Assembly (NCBI GenBank): GCA_965230955.1
Contig: OZ246404.1
Location: forward strand, 856,790 to 920,789
Length of the DNA stretch: 64,000 bases
From: an uncultured Candidatus Saccharibacteria bacterium
GTDB lineage: Bacteria > Patescibacteriota > CALEFQ01
Direction of reading: 5' to 3'
How positions within the stretch are numbered: the stretch's first letter is position 1; each line of letters begins with the position of its first letter. The translations under genes and the position numbers were made by a program. Below the pieces are notes generated by a model, which did no database searches, had not been told where the DNA came from, and was given only the letters and a program-made list of their open reading frames with translations. Shown one piece after another: positions 32,118 to 50,472 of this stretch.

Positions 32118-32362
32118 GGCTCCCCGGGCTGGACTTTCCCATTCACCCCTTCGGGGCTTCGGGAGGCAGGCCGAACCTTTTTCCACGCTCACGAGGATGA
32201 TTGGTTCATCGTGGCATTTATCAAGATTCCCCTGGGACTTTTGCGGCTGCCCGACAGAGGGGTAAACCTATGTGAGTATTACCCTGTTTTCTGTTTCTGA
32301 TTCTAGGGTAGCAAGTTCCCACATCCCTGCAATGTATTTTTTGTCCAGATGGGCAATTTTCT
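32118..32362. repeat. Junction module J1: tRNA-Asn 3'-end fragment (GGCTCCCCGGGCTGGACT) plus conserved ~190-bp F sequence
   Basis: The 18-nt fragment matches the acceptor and T-arm end of tRNA-Asn at 50397-50472. The following ~190 bp recur at 35166, 39338, 41844 and 45682. Confidence 0.75.
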
Positions 32363-32380: not shown

Positions 32381-32716
32381 CTATCCCTTATTCTGTTTTT
32401 TCCAAACTCGATTATTGTTGATTTCTTGTTTATCCCGAAAAGCTTTTTCCAGATCCACCCCAAATTTATTGGCAATGGCACAAAGAAAAATCAACACATC
32501 TGCCAGTTCATCCTTGATAGATCCGGTTTTGGAATCATGAGCTATTTGTTGATTTTCGCTCTTGCGTATCGCCTTGAATAATTCTCCAACTTCCTCGCCC
32601 ATCATAAGGCAATAATGAAAAGTGTCCGTTGAAAACCCACGGTCCTTTTCTACGTCGAGGATATACTTTTGCAAATCTTTTAATCGCGGATTACTTTTTA
32701 GAATAGGCTTAGTCAT
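32381..32716 (-). CDS. MazG-like nucleotide pyrophosphohydrolase (small type)
   Basis: EEVGELFKAI and ELADVLIF motifs. 111 aa. Confidence 0.7.
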   Translation of the reverse strand: MTKPILKSNPRLKDLQKYILDVEKDRGFSTDTFHYCLMMGEEVGELFKAIRKSENQQIAHDSKTGSIKDELADVLIFLCAIANKFGVDLEKAFRDKQEINNNRVWKKQNKG

Positions 32717-37406: not shown

Positions 37407-37925
37407 TTAACCTTTTTGAGCATCTGCTTTGTCTTCTATAGATTTTTCAACTTTGGGAATAGCCTCACTCAGAAATCGATAAAAACTTTTTGCGCGCTTT
37501 CTCCAGTAAGAATCATCCGGGCTAAATTTATCTCCAGGGGTGACAGTTAACCTTGTATACAAGCAGTCTTCCCGCATTTCTGGGATGCGACTCTGTGCCC
37601 ACGAAAAATTTTCATCTGTTGGAGTAAAATTGTAGCATGTGGCAGATAAGCTCATTACAGTATTGCATTTTGCCTCATGACTAAGCAGCAGTCTAATCTC
37701 ATCATCCCAAATATCTTCACCTGCAAGCAATGTAGCCTTCGCCAATTCTTCTAGCCCTACAATCAACAATGCCTGGGCTTCAGAAAATAAACCTTCTTTC
37801 ATCAACAAACTAGCTGCTGATTGTTTTTTCTTAGCATTGTCGATTGCCGCTTTAGCTAGTTTGTGCCAATTTTCAGTGACGAATTCTTTATCGATCCTTG
37901 GCTTTCTATTTTTTGATTTATTCAT
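37407..37925 (-). CDS. HEPN-domain-like protein
   Basis: Helical protein with an Rx4H motif (RLLLSH) downstream of an LLIVGLEELAKA helix. 4-bp overlap with the upstream MBL gene. Confidence 0.4.
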   Translation of the reverse strand: MNKSKNRKPRIDKEFVTENWHKLAKAAIDNAKKKQSAASLLMKEGLFSEAQALLIVGLEELAKATLLAGEDIWDDEIRLLLSHEAKCNTVMSLSATCYNFTPTDENFSWAQSRIPEMREDCLYTRLTVTPGDKFSPDDSYWRKRAKSFYRFLSEAIPKVEKSIEDKADAQKG

Positions 37926-44395: not shown

Positions 44396-45469
44396 TTAAA
44401 GAATAGAAAACTCTTCTTCCTTTGCATCTTCCAGTATGCTTAAAAATTCATTAAACTCACTACGTTTTCTATTAATAATATTTTCTAGCAATTCGATTTT
44501 TATATCTTGCAAATCCTTTGGCATATTTGGATCCAAATCGAATCCTATTAAAAATGTATCCACCACCTTCAAGTTCGGATTGTGATTTTGAATAATGCCT
44601 TTGTATCCCAAGACCTGACCCACATGCTTAGTATTGAGCCTTATATTTGGTCTTTTTAACTCAACTAAAACGATATGCCTTTCATCCTGGAGAAATATTT
44701 TTAGAATCAAATCTGGCCTTTTGCCAAGCTCGCTGTCAATTCCTAGCTTTTGTGCCAAGAACTCACTTAGTGGTTTATTACTTTTCACAAGATCATAATT
44801 ATTATCAAGTAGCCATAAATTATTTTCTAATAGCTTATGGATTTCTTGCTCTTTCGTTTTTTTGTCCTTCAACAATATTTGCAGTAATTTAATTATTGAT
44901 ATCTTTTTCTTTACCAATTCTGCAATGGAGCTAATTTGACCTATTCTTAAATCATTTAGTAATGAAGCAAAGCCTGTTATGTCTTTTTCTTCAGCTTCAG
45001 ACAGTTTTTTCAACATAATATCTATGTTCTCAGCCTTTATTTCATATATTCTCAACCCGAGTCTATCAAGAGCTTCGAGGCTTGCGGCTGATAATTTGGC
45101 TATATTCTTATTCGCAAGAACTTTTTCAATAAAATCGGGGTCTTCTTTTAAGACCTGCTCTATTTTGATTAAAACTTCGTCTTTAACTAATTCGGTTTTT
45201 TGAATGGGCCACTCATGCTCTTTTACCGATTCTACCTCAACAACACTTTTTAAATCAGTCCAATCTTTGAAATGAAGATTAAAGAATTGCTGTTTATTTG
45301 CAGATTTACCCAACAAAATCCTCTTCATAACAACATAATTTCTATCTTTGTGTTCAGAGTCACTTAGAATAGCAAAAGTAGTCAAACCACTGGACCAATT
45401 TTTTGTTAATTTTTTAATAACTTTGAACTTATGCATAAATATTAATTTATTAAAATAATACGGCCCCAT
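44396..45469 (-). CDS. Putative PD-(D/E)xK nuclease of the DUF4263/Shedu-like type
   Basis: C-terminal region contains RPDLIL ... VLVELKRP, a D...ExK arrangement. Long helical N-terminal region. The family assignment was made by eye only. Confidence 0.4.
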   Translation of the reverse strand: MGPYYFNKLIFMHKFKVIKKLTKNWSSGLTTFAILSDSEHKDRNYVVMKRILLGKSANKQQFFNLHFKDWTDLKSVVEVESVKEHEWPIQKTELVKDEVLIKIEQVLKEDPDFIEKVLANKNIAKLSAASLEALDRLGLRIYEIKAENIDIMLKKLSEAEEKDITGFASLLNDLRIGQISSIAELVKKKISIIKLLQILLKDKKTKEQEIHKLLENNLWLLDNNYDLVKSNKPLSEFLAQKLGIDSELGKRPDLILKIFLQDERHIVLVELKRPNIRLNTKHVGQVLGYKGIIQNHNPNLKVVDTFLIGFDLDPNMPKDLQDIKIELLENIINRKRSEFNEFLSILEDAKEEEFSIL

Positions 45470-45526: not shown

Positions 45527-45860
45527 ACCCTCAAAATCCCTTATCTAAGCGAAAACCCCGTTTTGACGGGGTTTTCTATCTCCCTGGTTCGAACCTGCTT
45601 CTTTGGGCTAAACTTAGCGAATATTTGATTTAAAAACTCTAAAATTCTGCTCTGGCTCCCCCTGGTCGAATCAATTAGAACTTTTTGCAAGGCGCATGAG
45701 GATGATTTTGATGTTCCTGTGTACATAAAAACGAATAATGGATTAGAGCTGAAAACTGGATGGGATTTCAGAGTGAGAGATTATTATCCCCTTCCCTGAT
45801 CCCAATTTCAGGATAGCAGATTCATGGATCTGGCAAAGACATTTTTTGTGTGAGGAACAA
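45527..45860. repeat. Junction module J5
   Basis: Core copy GAGACTCGAACCC. Hairpin AAAACCCCGTTTTGACGGGGTTTT. Copy b CCCTGGTTCGAACC. The 20-mer AAATTCTGCTCTGGCTCCCC at 45642-45661 is identical to 50386-50405 at the intact tRNA. Diverged F follows. Confidence 0.75.
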
Positions 45861-46192
45861 AAAAGATGTGGATAAAATCGTTGCATAGTTCCACCTCTAA
45901 CGAGCTCTACTTCCCTATCGATTTTTGAATTCTCCTTCAAGTTTCTCATGTCCCAGGTTATGACGACATTGTAATATGTATGACCAGAAAGAAAGGACAC
46001 TCAATCCACACACTTGTTCAATATGTCAGGTCAAAGTTCGATAGTCGCGTTACGAAGAACCTTAGATAGAATTGTGGGGGAAAGATCTAGATAACGGCAA
46101 TAAATTCAGATAAGATAGAAGCAGTCCTTTTTAAAGGAGGTTTCTTTTGCTAAATTGGCATAGTATGAGCTCAGGCGAAGAAACGTTGCGAC

Positions 46193-47494
46193 ATGGAAAA
46201 AATTAGAATTTTTATTAGTCATTCATCAAAAGACATAGATTTAGTAAGTAAGCTGGTAAGTGCTCTTCAAGAGTCGTTTGTTATACCTAGTGGAGCTATC
46301 CGATGCACCTCTTTATCTGGGTATAAATTAACACCAGGGGCACATACATCCACCACATTATTAGAAGAGCTGTTAAAAGCTGATTTGATTATAGGAGTCT
46401 TGACACGATTAAGCTCAAAGTCCAGCTGGGTTCTGTTTGAACTTGGGGCTGGGTGGGGGAAAAAAATATGGACGGTCCCTTTGCTTGGAGGGCTTGATTT
46501 CGACGAGATAGAAGGCCCACTAAAAGAATTCCACGCTATTAAGACTGATGACGAGGACGCCCTACTAGACCTTTTTGAGAAAATGCAAAATCAGCTAAAA
46601 TTGCAGCCACAGTCTGCTTCTATAAGATTGTCGGCAATACGAAAAATAGTAAATGCTTTAAAGGAGGGAGAAAAAGTTAAATCAGATGCTTATATTCCGC
46701 AGCCTGAAGAACTGGCTCATAGCCAGATGCCTGAACGTGTCGAAACACCAACGATTGTAACAGCTTACCTTAGTAAACTAACCAAAGAGACGCGCGAGGA
46801 AGAAGTTCTTCCTTTTTTTAATAGAGCTGTCTCTTATCATAAGCATGACAAAAAAATCCTGGCAAGATTTTATTTTCAACTAGCACAATTTTTTTTAAAA
46901 AAAGAAGAGCCAAGTAAAGCTCTTGAGTATTTGAATATTTCCTTAGAAAATAGTCCAAATGATATATATACCTTGAATTCCCGAGGTAAAATTTTTATAA
47001 GAATGAAGCAGTTCAAAGACGCAGAAGCAGATTTTAAGCTAGCTTTAGAAATCGACAGCGAGAGCTTGGTCAATCTAAGCTCATTAATGAGACTTTACTC
47101 GAAAAACCTACTAGAGCACATAGATAAAATACCATATCTAAGCAAGGAGCTGATAACGCTAGCTCGAAAGAAAAATGATCCCGATTCCACTTCGTTCGGT
47201 TATGCTCTCTGGGCTACTTCTCAAATTAAAGAAGACCCAAGAGCTGCTGAGATAAATTTTGACAACGCCTTAAAAGAAGCAGAGAGAATCGGTCGTAAAA
47301 TAAATAAAAATCGCAGAATTGTATCTATCTTAAGGCATCGAATAAAACTGTATTCCACTTTAAAGAGGGATGATGAGGCTAAACAAGATTTTATCCAGGC
47401 GTGGAATCTTTGCCTAGAATTTCCTGAGGACAGAGAGATCAAAAATTCAGTGGAAGCGCTAAAAGTTGAATCCGGGCATCTGATGGGCAATTAA
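46193..47494 (+). CDS. TIR-domain protein with C-terminal TPR repeats
   Basis: N-terminal IFISHSSKD start. SSWVLFELG (W with Glu at +4, the predicted NADase catalytic site). The C-terminal ~250 aa are TPR-like helical repeats. It is the only plus-strand gene in the array. Confidence 0.7.
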   Translation: MEKIRIFISHSSKDIDLVSKLVSALQESFVIPSGAIRCTSLSGYKLTPGAHTSTTLLEELLKADLIIGVLTRLSSKSSWVLFELGAGWGKKIWTVPLLGGLDFDEIEGPLKEFHAIKTDDEDALLDLFEKMQNQLKLQPQSASIRLSAIRKIVNALKEGEKVKSDAYIPQPEELAHSQMPERVETPTIVTAYLSKLTKETREEEVLPFFNRAVSYHKHDKKILARFYFQLAQFFLKKEEPSKALEYLNISLENSPNDIYTLNSRGKIFIRMKQFKDAEADFKLALEIDSESLVNLSSLMRLYSKNLLEHIDKIPYLSKELITLARKKNDPDSTSFGYALWATSQIKEDPRAAEINFDNALKEAERIGRKINKNRRIVSILRHRIKLYSTLKRDDEAKQDFIQAWNLCLEFPEDREIKNSVEALKVESGHLMGN

Positions 47495-47495
47495 A

Positions 47496-47526
47496 GAAGC
47501 CTTCATTTTTTCTGAATGAAGGCTTT
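47496..47526. terminator. Bidirectional hairpin terminator
   Basis: GAAGCCTTCATT ... AATGAAGGCTTT inverted repeat between the convergent TIR-TPR gene and the small minus-strand ORF. Confidence 0.55.
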
Positions 47527-47547
47527 CATTGTCATAAGTAGGCATGT

Positions 47548-47706
47548 TTACAATTCGTAGTTTTCTTTAAGAAATGCAATGTGCGCGTTCAGTAAATCTT
47601 TCTCTTCCTCGGACAAGTTGTCCGGGCCTAAGTCGTATTTTTCCTGATCCTGAAGAACCGCATCGAGCATTTTCAAGAGTGCCTCATACCTCTCTTTGGG
47701 TGTCAT
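47548..47706 (-). CDS. Small hypothetical protein (52 aa)
   Basis: Preceded by the SD AAGGAGGAAAAACT. The sequence is MTPKERYEALLKMLDAVLQDQEKYDLGPDNLSEEEKDLLNAHIAFLKENYEL. It falls below the size cutoff of the supplied ORF track. Confidence 0.4.
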   Translation of the reverse strand: MTPKERYEALLKMLDAVLQDQEKYDLGPDNLSEEEKDLLNAHIAFLKENYEL

Positions 47707-48313
47707 AGTTTTTCCTCCTTGAAAAAAATGATCTCTTTCTGGTCAGCCTTGCTCCTCATGGCCACACAGACATAAATCTTTTTCTTCGAGAAGGGATCAA
47801 CCCACGAAACGAAAAAATTATTTGTTACACCCTTTTCAAATTGAGTCAGGAAAACGATCCGTCCTCAGACTATTGATTGAAAAAACTTTAGTTGTGAAAA
47901 AATGGGAGTAGAACGGTTGGAAAAACATGCTCAAGAAAGCATCCAATAAACAATTGCACATCGGGATATACCCAACTTGACTATGCAAACCGAATCCCCT
48001 TTCGAATATTAGGAAGAAACTTGAAATGCAACCTTGATCTTTCATTTTACACGGATTAGGTTTTATGTCAAGGGTTATTTTACATGAAAAACCGTTCTGC
48101 AAGTGACCGTGCCTTATTCTAGCCATAATCTGATAAAACAGGTGATAAAATCCTTTCTGCTACAGTCTTTTCAGAGGAGATTATAAGCAATTGGAGTATA
48201 GGTTTCTTTTGGCTGAAATAGAGTATCGCACATGGTACACTAAATAACTAGAGTAACATATTTCGCCAAATATGGGACACTAAATTAATAGCAAATATTG
48301 CCTGATACTCTGT

Positions 48314-49399
48314 TTACCCCATAATTCCAACCAGCTTCTTAAACACATATACACTCGGCTTTTGCCCAGAACCTTTTTGAATTCTCTGAAGCACTCCACC
48401 CTTTAGAAGTCTCTCGATAATTCGAATCGAGCTCATCTTAGGAATCCCTGATTTTTTCACAAATTGGGCTGTTGTAAAATACGGGAAACAAAACAAGAAA
48501 TCCAGTGTCTTGATGGCAAACTGCGAGTGAGTAAGACTTTCAATCCGAATTTTTTTTGCATCATAAAGCTCGTGAATGGCTTTGGCCTTTTTGATGTTAA
48601 CCTTTGCCTGTTCAATCACAGCGGTCAGAAAATACTCAATCCAGCCCTCCCAATCCTGGTTTTGCGAAACCGATCTGAGTTTGCGGTAATAGGTCGCTCG
48701 ATCAGCTTCCAAATATTGACTCAAATAAAACGCTGGACTCAGAAGCACTTTTTTATCGTAGAGGAAAAGAGGAATAAGAATTCTTCCCAACCTGCCGTTG
48801 CCATCATTGAACGGATGGATCATTTCAAATTGTGCATGAATGATCGCCAATTGGACCATGAAGTCTTTTTCCGATGAATGGATATACTTTTCAAGGTTGG
48901 ACAGGCAATCCACTATTTTCTCCGGAGATGGAGGTACAAAAGAAGCATTTTCAATTTTAGAGCCAATGGGACCAATCCAATTCTGGGTGGATCTGAAATT
49001 GCCAGGATTTTTATTCTGTCCCCTGACCCCACTTAATAGAATTTGGTGAGTTCCTCGGATGAGACGCAAGCTTAGGGGAAGCTTTTTCATTTCACTAACG
49101 GCGAATGTCAGAGCTTTTCGATAATTAATCACCTCTTGGATATCCCCAAACTTCTCTGTTTTCATCTTGGGATCAGCTTCATATTCGAGCACTTCCTCAA
49201 GTGAAGCTTGGGTTCCTTCGATTTTAGATGAAAGAACTGCTTCTTGGGTTGTGAGGGGTGATAGCAGTACAGCAGGATTCGGAATACTTTGCAGAAGGCC
49301 ATCAAATCTGGCTACTTCCGCATTGGCTTTACCTATCAGATGCACAAACTTGTTCCAGTCAAGCTTCACAGGAAGCTTTTCTGGCTCAAAAGGCTTCAT
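48314..49399 (-). CDS. Fic family protein (class II: inhibitory helix plus C-terminal wHTH)
   Basis: Fic motif HPFNDGNGRLGR. N-terminal SSKIEG matches the [ST]xxxE[GN] inhibitory motif. Confidence 0.85.
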   Translation of the reverse strand: MKPFEPEKLPVKLDWNKFVHLIGKANAEVARFDGLLQSIPNPAVLLSPLTTQEAVLSSKIEGTQASLEEVLEYEADPKMKTEKFGDIQEVINYRKALTFAVSEMKKLPLSLRLIRGTHQILLSGVRGQNKNPGNFRSTQNWIGPIGSKIENASFVPPSPEKIVDCLSNLEKYIHSSEKDFMVQLAIIHAQFEMIHPFNDGNGRLGRILIPLFLYDKKVLLSPAFYLSQYLEADRATYYRKLRSVSQNQDWEGWIEYFLTAVIEQAKVNIKKAKAIHELYDAKKIRIESLTHSQFAIKTLDFLFCFPYFTTAQFVKKSGIPKMSSIRIIERLLKGGVLQRIQKGSGQKPSVYVFKKLVGIMG

Positions 49400-49625: not shown

Positions 49626-50144
49626 TCAAAAATACGCAGATCCAATGGAATAGCGCCATCTCTGTTTTTTATCTTGAGCGACGGTAATCTGATCGAGATC
49701 GATGAGCACTTCTCTATCTTCGATGGATAGATTTGAGGAGACCAGGCTTACACCATCAAGCTCCGCGGTAATGCCAAATGATTTACAGAGACTTCCGGGA
49801 AATCTGGTCATATCCCTTGTGTTAAAAACTTCTCCTTCAAAATTCTCCTGCATTATTTCCATCCCATAAAAGGGAGTCGCTTTCCTAATGACTATTGGGC
49901 AGATCGATGATTTTTCACCAACGGCAACCGCGAGCTGGTATTTATTCTTGATGTTGAGGCTAATCAAGGCGGTGCCGGCCTTTCTGTTGTGGATGTGACT
50001 CTTTAGAGTTGGATTGATTTCAACTTCCTCAATCATGGCCGAAAGCGGTCCTTTTGATGAATTATGTACCAGATACTTCCCCAAAAGATTTCGGGCTGCG
50101 ATTTGGGGTGAGAGTTGATAGAACTCTTCTTTTAATGTGCTCAT
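49626..50144 (-). CDS. Hypothetical protein, possibly a 3-methyladenine DNA glycosylase (Mpg)-like fold
   Basis: N-terminal LLGKYLVH resembles the Mpg hallmark. The rest is too diverged to be sure. Confidence 0.3.
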   Translation of the reverse strand: MSTLKEEFYQLSPQIAARNLLGKYLVHNSSKGPLSAMIEEVEINPTLKSHIHNRKAGTALISLNIKNKYQLAVAVGEKSSICPIVIRKATPFYGMEIMQENFEGEVFNTRDMTRFPGSLCKSFGITAELDGVSLVSSNLSIEDREVLIDLDQITVAQDKKQRWRYSIGSAYF

Positions 50145-50396
50145 AATATAATGGGTTAATCTCTATTTCCAGAGTATCGAACCCGAGCAAAGAGCAAAAC
50201 CAATATTTTGTCTGAGTAGTAAAAAACCTGTGGATTGTATAAATCGATTCAAACTTGAGGTTGCGCTAAGTTAAGCTAAAATCGAGAAAGGGCAAAAGAC
50301 GTTAGAACCTCTCCATAGAAACAGAAAACCGCTTGGTTAAGCGGTTTGTTCGTGATTATAAGGCAAATTTTAAATCAAGGTTCTGAAATTCTGCTC

Positions 50397-50472
50397 TGGC
50401 TCCCCGGGCTGGACTCGAACCAGCGACATCCTCGTTAACAGCGAGGCGCTCTACCGACTGAGCTACCGGGGA
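50397..50472 (-). tRNA. tRNA-Asn (GTT)
   Basis: Cloverleaf read from the reverse strand. Acceptor TCCCCGG/CCGGGGA. D-arm GCTC-AGTCGGTA-GAGC. Anticodon loop CTGTTAA. T-arm GCTGG-TTCGAGT-CCAGC. Encoded CCA. Confidence 0.85.

Follow-up and report, generated by a model that had tools for sequence, protein, structure and literature searches.

A SpbK-type TIR domain fused to an orphan helical domain in a tRNA-Asn cassette: a candidate single-protein defense gene of a candidate phyla radiation bacterium

Organization of the TIR-TPR gene

Our analysis concerns a 64-kb stretch of the 1.136-Mb contig OZ246404.1 (positions 856,790 to 920,789 of the forward strand), which we refer to as the window and number from its first letter. 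At 46193..47494 on the plus strand, it holds a gene for a 433-amino-acid (aa) protein composed of an N-terminal TIR domain, a short linker, and an all-helical, partly TPR-type C-terminal half (TIR-TPR). The TIR domain belongs to the subfamily of SpbK and conserves its predicted catalytic residue and part of its interface residues, and the gene is carried in a mobile and variable cassette beside a tRNA-Asn gene, next to a 52-aa open reading frame (ORF) and a Fic gene, with no partner effector found. We read TIR-TPR as a candidate stand-alone defense protein.

The gene had originally been predicted from the DNA letters and a list of ORFs, in which it is indeed present as an intact ORF including its stop codon. 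The protein sequence is identical in the NCBI and Logan assemblies, and the same sequence was obtained from two sequencing runs. In a greedy ORF map, nearly all of the window genes lie on the minus strand, and the gene at 46193 is the sole predicted plus-strand gene between ~19 and 64 kb, just as the original prediction had described it for the surrounding array. The encoded protein is hydrophilic overall, with a grand average of hydropathy of -0.36. Immediately upstream, we noted by eye a short plus-strand ORF with a near-perfect Shine-Dalgarno (SD) sequence, AAAGGAGG (46133-46140), located 6 nt ahead of a TTG at 46147. It comprises 19 codons (MLNWHSMSSGEETLRHGKN) and stops at a TAG (46204-46206), and the resulting ORF (46147-46206) overlaps the TIR-TPR ATG at 46193 out of frame. 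It could serve as a translational-coupling or leader ORF restricting the expression of a toxic effector.

A SpbK-type TIR domain at the N-terminus

Residues 1-160 (46193..46672, plus strand) comprise five strands plus helices and had been described as TIR-like in the original prediction. Pfam, AlphaFold2 (AF2) modeling, and Foldseek all identify this segment as a real TIR domain. The Pfam family is TIR_2 (PF13676), which matches aa 6-119 with 38 bits (E 2.6e-9), above its gathering cut-off of 28. The prediction had also pointed to DUF1863; that family (DUF1863/ThsB_TIR, PF08937) yielded no Pfam match at E ≤ 0.1. Among the PADLOC models, the best match to TIR-TPR is spbK (E 1.1e-8, profile positions 149-288 of 308), and the ThsB models match weakly (E 2e-5 to 1e-2). 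A profile built from 120 relatives and searched against the PDB retrieved SpbK with 61.7 bits (E 8.5e-16), with the next match at only E 1.8e-3. SpbK was also the sole solved structure retrieved by sequence.

The predicted structure leads to the same subfamily. When an alignment of relatives was supplied as input, the AF2 model exhibited a predicted local distance difference test (pLDDT) score >90 across aa 1-160, and the top Foldseek match of the model in the PDB is the SpbK TIR filament (9phb), with a target-normalized TM score of 0.80 and a root-mean-square deviation of 2.7 Å. The alignment spans 158 columns and covers all 156 target residues, including the extra helix alphaF, which in SpbK packs upon alphaA/alphaE (PMC12847820). 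In the AF2 model of TIR-TPR, aa 142-163 form an additional helix at the C-terminal end of the domain as a counterpart of alphaF, and the matches of its relatives run to about aa 150-160, a span consistent with the alphaF region. SPARTA TIR-APAZ chains ranked second in Foldseek, followed by generic TIR domains; of the 50 best PDB matches, TIR domains account for about 45. Since Pfam, PADLOC, the PDB profile, AF2, and Foldseek independently agree, we can conclude that aa 1-160 constitute a genuine TIR domain of the SpbK type.

The predicted catalytic glutamate and some interface residues are conserved

The predicted catalytic glutamate is E83 (codon 46439..46441, plus strand), which lies together with W79 in the motif SSWVLFELG (aa 77-85) and aligns with SpbK E192. 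The retention of this residue, already proposed from the sequence, is confirmed by the relatives, as E83, G85, and W88 are invariant in 250/250 of those inspected. Near-invariant motifs among the same 250 relatives are F-I-S-H, I-R-C-T-S, and F-E-L-G-A-x-W, and all 12 of the residues that are invariant in the 120-sequence alignment are kept in TIR-TPR. In HMMER alignments, WVLFELGAGW pairs with YCLNEMGATW of SpbK, and the SpbK NAD-site residues S121, S122, T148, Y188, and E192 correspond to S11, S12, T39, W79, and E83, respectively. SpbK activity requires N191, G194, and W197 of its interstrand CC interface in addition to D158 of the BB loop, and mutation of either G194 or W197 abolishes its NADase activity (PMC12847820); the latter two interface residues correspond to G85 and W88 of TIR-TPR. 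It should be noted that GAGWGKK (aa 85-91), which might be taken for a Walker-A motif, was rejected as such: it sits in TIR helix alphaC and mismatches the GxxxxGK[ST] consensus.

The C-terminal half is helical and private to TIR-TPR

The TIR domain is followed by a linker (aa 161-189; 46673..46759, plus strand) that is predicted to be disordered, with AF2 pLDDT values <50 at aa 170-189, and by a C-terminal domain (aa 190-433; 46760..47491, plus strand) that two AF2 models predict, at low confidence, to be all-helical. It is partly of the TPR type and is presumed to serve in sensing or oligomerization. The earlier description of this half as ~250 aa of TPR repeats held only in part. Two motifs, at aa 224-257 and 259-289 (46862..47059, plus strand), are supported by sequence through the Pfam families TPR_1, TPR_2, and TPR_8. 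Residues 290-433 have no significant TPR match in Pfam and are predicted as helices with low confidence (full AF2 model, pLDDT 45-79), while by eye the helix pattern up to about aa 420 resembles TPR A/B hairpins. When the C-terminal domain was modeled alone, AF2 again returned only helices, with a mean pLDDT of 54.7. The domain is basic (isoelectric point [pI] 9.1). Apart from TIR-TPR itself, a search of aa 140-433 against 5.8 billion protein clusters recovered just two TPR proteins of a generic type, over ~60 aa each; by sequence, the C-terminal domain is private to TIR-TPR.

Relatives of the TIR domain and their genomic settings

An exhaustive HMMER search of the full protein against 1.84 billion representatives returned 4,888 relatives, the best with 138 bits, and no full-length match; a genome-contig scan queried with the TIR-TPR protein itself gave no match either. 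As judged from these sequence searches, the full-length architecture is a singleton. The match of the relatives is confined to aa 1-~160, with an occasional extension into the linker; the exceptions are three long TPR-repeat proteins that match the TPR region only. Of 250 inspected relatives, 75 carry the TIR domain at the N-terminus, 79 at the C-terminus, and 85 internally, while 11 consist of it alone; the non-TIR parts are mostly unannotated, with an occasional DUF2513, FGE-sulfatase, GUN4, or TPR domain. Because the position of the TIR domain varies and the fused domains are unrelated, this is the pattern expected if the SpbK-like subfamily represents a conserved effector that has been recombined with swappable sensors. 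The same subfamily is also encoded on 14 IMG/VR viral contigs, and a tblastn search against plasmids and phages found TIR-only matches, none of them from E. coli.

The original prediction had turned to the neighborhoods of homologs as a guide to function, and these side with defense for the most part. We sampled 11 neighborhoods (nine genomic or metagenomic and two plasmid-borne), a sample that is suggestive rather than statistical, and defense or mobile-element markers adjoin the TIR gene in seven of them. In one relative, a type ISP restriction enzyme gene overlaps the TIR gene by 4 nt, while others are located beside a PemK, ParE, and HicAB toxin-antitoxin block, a phage integrase, or a group of methyltransferase, ORC-CDC6-like, and PRTase-CE genes. 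On an E. faecium conjugative plasmid, the TIR gene is accompanied by an ATPase, an S8 protease, and a second TIR gene, and a Priestia plasmid carries three TIR genes together with a macro-domain gene and a TaqI-like enzyme. Further TIR genes also adjoin the relative P0040. No neighbor is conserved across the 11 neighborhoods, and the four settings outside this majority are taken up below.

The P0040 locus (L003, 1909-4060) is of some interest in its own right. It contains two adjacent genes for pentapeptide-repeat plus TIR_2 fusions, and this pair adjoins the SpbK-like TIR protein, which has a sub-threshold TPR motif N-terminal of its TIR domain. DUF6119 and PadR genes are present as well, so that several TIR-repeat fusions are clustered together at a single locus.

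Neighboring genes and the absence of a partner

Convergent with the TIR-TPR gene is an ORF for a 52-aa acidic protein (pI 4.4; 47548..47706, minus strand), which has AAGGAGG 7 nt before its ATG, in agreement with the predicted SD-preceded arrangement. Because of this strong SD, the ORF may be translated. It has no homolog among 5.8 billion proteins and no family match in Pfam, PADLOC, or NCBIfam. The prediction had grouped it with the TIR-TPR gene, a grouping that we do not retain, as the ORF is an orphan in a separate, convergent transcription unit; its membership in a TIR module is unproven, and we leave it out of the system. Between the two genes lies a hairpin with an 11-13-bp stem (47497-47525, both strands), for which the folding energy is -19.1 kcal/mol on the plus strand (z -4.7 versus shuffled sequences) and -13.7 kcal/mol on the minus strand. 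A bidirectional terminator had been proposed here. The U-tracts of the hairpin are weak on both sides, so that a terminator for both genes is no more than plausible. On the far side of the 52-aa ORF, the 607-bp gap to the Fic gene (47707-48313) contains no credible gene and no Rfam match. It includes an 11/12 sigma-70-like promoter on the minus strand (48071-48044; TTGACA-16-TAAAAT), which would give the 52-aa ORF a ~340-nt leader. Even at a permissive threshold, the tRNA was the sole Rfam match within 40-51 kb, with no riboswitch or small RNA for the gap or the leader.

The Fic gene that the original prediction placed next (48314..49399, minus strand) encodes a 361-aa protein with Pfam Fic_N and Fic domains and an HPFxDGNGR-type motif (HPFNDGNGRLGR). 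It matches PADLOC SoFic with 402 bits (E 7e-121, positions 1-360 of 361) and scores 181 bits against the NCBIfam SoFic equivalog, below the cut-off of 550. We regard this SoFic-like gene as a separate candidate defense gene and not as part of the TIR system.

The predicted lack of a SIR2, Macro, or cyclase partner was upheld at both scales examined. Pfam, PADLOC, and NCBIfam scans of the neighboring genes returned no ThsA, SIR2, Macro, SLOG, cyclase, APAZ, or Argonaute model, and PADLOC run over 59 ORFs of the window detected no ThsA, SIR2, Macro, SLOG, cyclase, APAZ, or Argonaute gene and no second TIR gene among the matches listed, which represent 25 of 33 families.

The gene resides in a variable tRNA-Asn cassette

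The tRNA-Asn gene (50397-50472) and its 3' flank (50367..50472, minus strand; ARAGORN, Rfam 72 bits, repeat family D7) mark the near boundary of the cassette. Its far boundary is a second, distal copy (45623..45672, minus strand) of the 3' end of tRNA-Asn together with sequence downstream of it, which was recognized by alignment as a member of the same repeat family. The sequence GGGGAGCCAGAGCAGAATTT, which is common to the tRNA end and the copy at 45.65 kb, delimits a 4.7-kb tRNA-proximal cassette (45.67-50.40 kb), and two independent Logan assemblies break at 45664, i.e. at the repeat. This cassette contains a divergent MPG-like glycosylase gene, the SoFic-like Fic gene, the 52-aa ORF, and the TIR-TPR gene, and its GC content is 0.40 versus 0.48-0.49 in the flanking core.

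The surrounding genome supports both the placement of the host and the variability of the site. DnaG is 81% identical to that of L006, an uncultured metagenome-assembled genome, and about 40% identical to that of Daviesbacteria, which places the organism in Patescibacteria, i.e. the candidate phyla radiation (CPR). L006 is syntenic through DnaG, RpoD, a four-helix-bundle protein, and tRNA-Asn and then jumps to the sequence found at 41.8 kb of the window, with no similarity found between about 41.8 and 50.4 kb; at the same tRNA, it has different cargo, a HAD-like gene. A block of 10.5 kb that includes the tRNA-proximal cassette (39.3-49.9 kb) is thereby absent from L006. No integrase was seen within 26-51 kb. 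We consider it probable that the TIR-TPR gene arrived by horizontal transfer, as cargo of a cassette that integrated at tRNA-Asn. Among the cargo of the following cassettes are a Shedu/DUF4263-type nuclease with marginal scores, an HNH protein, and a HEPN_AbiV protein.

Comparison with characterized TIR systems

SpbK of Bacillus subtilis ICEBs1 (9phb; PMC12847820, PMC8880864) is the closest characterized protein, being of the same TIR subfamily and the best PDB match in both sequence and fold. It is a single-protein NADase that is activated by a phage portal protein and causes abortive infection (PMC12847820). SpbK and TIR-TPR share IFISHSSKD, (I/Y)TS...Y..PG, E-x-G-x-x-W, and the extra helix alphaF, and both are single proteins on mobile elements without a partner effector. 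By analogy, the expected chemistry would also be the same, namely the conversion of NAD+ to ADP-ribose (ADPR) and cyclic ADP-ribose (cADPR) following TIR clustering. The two differ in that SpbK places an N-terminal YonE/portal-binding domain before its TIR domain, whereas TIR-TPR begins with the TIR domain and continues with a helical/TPR domain of 240 aa that is unrelated. Moreover, TIR identity is only about 25%, and SpbK is found in a Firmicute rather than in a CPR bacterium. With a different domain order and a different C-terminal domain, TIR-TPR is not a full-length SpbK ortholog.

A second point of reference is a set of single-protein TIR systems of E. coli, including TIR-II, which confer phage protection that depends on the TIR active site; TIR-II is described as the one of highest abundance and widest distribution among the new TIR systems of that study (PMC11350192). 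As judged from its described architecture, TIR-II likewise combines TIR and TPR in one protein, and the same layout is present here in one ORF (TIR_2 at aa 6-119 and TPR_1/2/8 at aa 224-289). An ATPase domain is present as well in about 30% of the TIR-II members, whereas TIR-TPR has none. Because its C-terminal domain has no detectable homolog, TIR-TPR is probably not a close TIR-II ortholog.

A strikingly similar layout is that of BcTpr, grouped here with ThsI of type VII/VIII Thoeris, a protein of 415 aa with an N-terminal N-glycosidase domain (catalytic E86) and C-terminal TPR at aa 190-415 (bioRxiv 10.1101/2023.05.26.542521), which is nearly superimposable on TIR-TPR with its E83 and its helical/TPR region from about aa 190. 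However, the N-terminus of BcTpr resembles MilB/nucleoside deoxyribosyltransferases and is not TIR_2, whereas that of TIR-TPR is a true TIR domain; in addition, BcTpr pairs with a separate TIR gene and neither alone protects, whereas no partner TIR was found here. The TPR region in the BcTpr/ThsI group has been proposed to sense cADPR. We rejected membership in this group, as the N-terminus is TIR_2/SpbK-like and the matches listed for the window include no further TIR gene.

ThsB, the TIR-STING and TIR-SAVED proteins of cyclic oligonucleotide-based (CBASS) systems, Pycsar, SPARTA, and TIR-Avs share the TIR fold and the catalytic glutamate with TIR-TPR, as well as the oligomerization-dependent NAD+ cleavage proposed for it, yet each needs additional parts (ThsA; a cyclase plus a cyclic-nucleotide sensor; a short Argonaute plus APAZ; a STAND NTPase). 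The misfit with Thoeris, CBASS, and Pycsar layouts that had been noted from the sequence is consistent with the lack of a partner effector. Thoeris (ThsB plus ThsA) was set aside, as there is no PF08937 match, ThsB models match weakly, and the matches listed for the window include nothing of the ThsA type. For CBASS and Pycsar, the Pfam, PADLOC, and NCBIfam scans contained no CD-NTase or pyrimidine cyclase and no STING, SAVED, or cyclic nucleotide monophosphate-sensing match. Only the TIR portion of SPARTA chains aligns (about 160-175 columns of 371-452 residues), with no Argonaute or APAZ match. An Avs or STAND TIR-NLR protein was rejected because Pfam and NCBIfam found no NTPase domain and only about 30 disordered residues lie between the TIR domain and the helical domain.

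Proposed function and alternative explanations

Given its TIR domain, its conserved glutamate, the lack of a partner, and its mobile cassette with defense-type genes, stand-alone NAD+-consuming defense is the best reading of TIR-TPR. We judge it reasonably probable, albeit well short of assured, that the protein is a stand-alone SpbK-like TIR NADase effector joined by a disordered linker to a private helical and partly TPR-type domain, acting in anti-phage abortive infection. This is essentially the single-protein, NAD+-depleting module of the original prediction, of which the TIR fold and subfamily, the conserved residues, the missing partner gene, and the mobile cassette stand on observation, while we infer by analogy that it is active as an enzyme, what triggers it, what the C-terminal domain does, and its defense phenotype. 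Following the example of SpbK, the protein would be dispersed and nearly inactive in an uninfected cell. Upon infection, the C-terminal domain would bind a phage or mobile-element protein, probably a multimeric one, and thereby gather the TIR domains, which would then stack head-to-tail as two-stranded arrays and form composite active sites around E83. NAD+ would be cleaved to nicotinamide plus ADPR and/or cADPR, and its loss would arrest or kill the cell ahead of the release of phage progeny.

Several observations weigh against this reading. Its support comes from sequence comparisons and models, and the closest relative is 51% identical (BLASTP) over the TIR domain only. The start codon at 46193 lacks a good SD. 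At the SpbK interface, N191 is replaced by F82 and D158 of the BB loop by A50, and because of these unconserved positions the geometry of TIR assembly may differ from that of SpbK. A sensor role for the C-terminal domain is pure inference, since the domain has neither homologs nor a confident model. Of the sampled relatives, one is found in a housekeeping setting between ruvB and queA and three have uninformative neighborhoods. The cassette array itself is not a pure defense island, because it includes many metabolic genes (SDRs, GNAT, S51 peptidase, metallo-beta-lactamase-type, DUF218, LD-carboxypeptidase, and 2-hydroxyacid dehydrogenase), and the SoFic neighbor is weak evidence for such an island, because matches to the SoFic model are very common and lack defense-island enrichment (PMC12259885). 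Finally, sequence does not separate NAD+ depletion from signaling, as SpbK-type TIR domains also make cADPR.

This last point leads directly to the alternative that TIR-TPR is a signaling TIR protein in the manner of Thoeris, making a messenger of the cADPR type upon infection, to which an effector from another part of the 1.1-Mb genome would respond, instead of killing through NAD+ depletion of its own. SpbK does yield N1-cADPR besides ADPR, and in type VII/VIII Thoeris cADPR acts as an immune signal (bioRxiv 10.1101/2023.05.26.542521, 10.64898/2025.12.03.692087). The weak ThsB matches in PADLOC and the macro-domain and additional TIR genes beside the Priestia plasmid relative point in the same direction. 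However, the cassette and the 64-kb window contain no ThsA, SLOG, SIR2, Macro, or ThsI-like gene among the matches listed, TIR-TPR has no ThsB_TIR/DUF1863 match in Pfam, and the nine genomic neighborhoods of relatives reveal no conserved partner. Defense systems also usually move as contiguous units, and this cassette is merely 4.7 kb in length. Thus, we consider a signaling role with a distant effector to be unlikely.

A function outside of defense also merits consideration, whether in episymbiosis, where the TIR NADase or nucleotide-processing activity would be directed at the host cell or at competing bacteria, or in the bacterium's own NAD or nucleotide signaling. There are bacterial TIR proteins that target the cells of a host, such as TcpB/BtpA, which is among the Foldseek fold matches of TIR-TPR. 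The organism is a CPR bacterium, and CPR bacteria are ultrasmall symbionts (PMC12259885); the relative in the housekeeping neighborhood and the metabolic genes of the array would fit this possibility as well. Against it, the protein is hydrophilic with an N-terminus (MEKIRIFISHSS) that by eye is unlike a signal peptide, and no secretion-system gene adjoins it in the Pfam, PADLOC, and NCBIfam scans. The closest characterized relative is an anti-phage protein, and the TIR subfamily is found on plasmids and prophage-like contigs and beside restriction-modification and toxin-antitoxin genes. On balance, a non-defense role seems improbable to us.

The remaining alternatives concern the 52-aa ORF and the integrity of the gene itself. 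In a two-gene module, the 52-aa protein would be a cognate inhibitor, antitoxin, or regulator of the TIR-TPR NADase, resembling a toxin-antitoxin or sensor-decoy pair. The ORF is small, adjacent, and convergent with a near-ideal SD, its product is acidic in contrast to the basic C-terminal domain, and a protein inhibitor of SpbK that is encoded by a phage has been described (PMC11984713). However, the ORF is without homologs or family matches, lies outside of the TIR-TPR operon, and has no counterpart as a conserved small neighbor among the relatives examined; it may equally go with the upstream Fic gene or be spurious. We therefore find a two-gene module very unlikely. That TIR-TPR is decaying cargo, i.e. 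the functionless remnant of a horizontally acquired cassette awaiting deletion, is extremely improbable despite its singleton status, the missing SD, and a cassette in which 607 bp are devoid of genes and a glycosylase-like gene scores far below family cut-offs, as the 433-codon ORF is intact, the invariant residues are retained (12/12), the TIR domain is modeled with very high confidence, and two sequencing runs gave the identical sequence.

Under the preferred reading of a stand-alone defense protein, an active TIR-TPR would represent a SpbK-type TIR effector that was recruited into ultra-small CPR/Patescibacteria genomes via a tRNA-linked cassette and equipped with a unique sensor domain. 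It would provide a data point on defense in reduced symbionts that are poor in NAD metabolism and would illustrate the free recombination of a TIR effector with new sensors. The novelty implied by the original prediction was set too high: SpbK (PMC12847820) and TIR-II (PMC11350192) are established systems, and the TIR subfamily has 4,888 representatives with many fused domains. The locus adds no new class of system, because single-protein TIR defenses, including TIR plus TPR fusions, have already been validated experimentally, and what is still of interest is that the host is a CPR bacterium, that the presumed sensor domain is an orphan, and that regulation may be unusual. As for the latter, a more far-reaching proposal combines a mode of regulation new to TIR defenses, exerted either by the 52-aa protein as an inhibitor or antitoxin or by the upstream ORF as a translational gate, with recognition of a CPR-phage protein by the C-terminal domain; this we regard as decidedly unlikely.

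Additional features of the cassette array

The tRNA-proximal cassette is the first of a tandem array of 2-5-kb cassettes past tRNA-Asn on the minus strand (~30000-50480). Copies of the tRNA-Asn 3' end plus ~150 nt downstream are located at 39.15-39.42, 41.66-41.92, and 45.50-45.76 kb, and the array repeats, which separate the cassettes, comprise GGGGAGCCA from the tRNA-Asn 3' end, a hairpin formed by AAAACCCCG...CGGGGTTTT, and the tRNA T-arm-like GGTTCGAGTC. A second repeat of 209 nt is found at 32148, 35137, and 39308.

Within the first cassette, the MPG-like (3-methyladenine) DNA glycosylase gene (49626-50144, minus strand) scores 58 bits in Pfam and 44 bits in NCBIfam, where the equivalog cut-offs are 116 or more, and the Logan assembly has its product at only 136 aa. 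Instead of the housekeeping enzyme, this could be a diverged glycosylase carried by the cassette. In the adjacent cassette, which has the lowest GC content of the region (0.316), a Shedu-like protein of 357 aa (44396-45469, minus strand) matches SduA_C/DUF4263 in Pfam with 27.1 bits against a cut-off of 27, SduA in PADLOC (E 9e-5), and a BbrUII/HgiDII-like NCBIfam model (E 2.5e-8). Its exact sequence was not found in a collection of 15 billion proteins. Deeper in the same array are a HEPN_AbiV-family protein (37407-37925, minus strand; Pfam 32.7 bits) and a MazG-like pyrophosphohydrolase (32381-32716, minus strand), types that are associated with abortive infection or nucleotide depletion. The per-family matches of PADLOC over the 59 window ORFs also include MzaA (E 4e-67), RT_UG29 (2e-46), mad3 (4e-32), and PsyrT (5e-16). 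An RTasDnaG-like match is probably the housekeeping dnaG gene, and the helicase-type matches may similarly correspond to housekeeping helicases.

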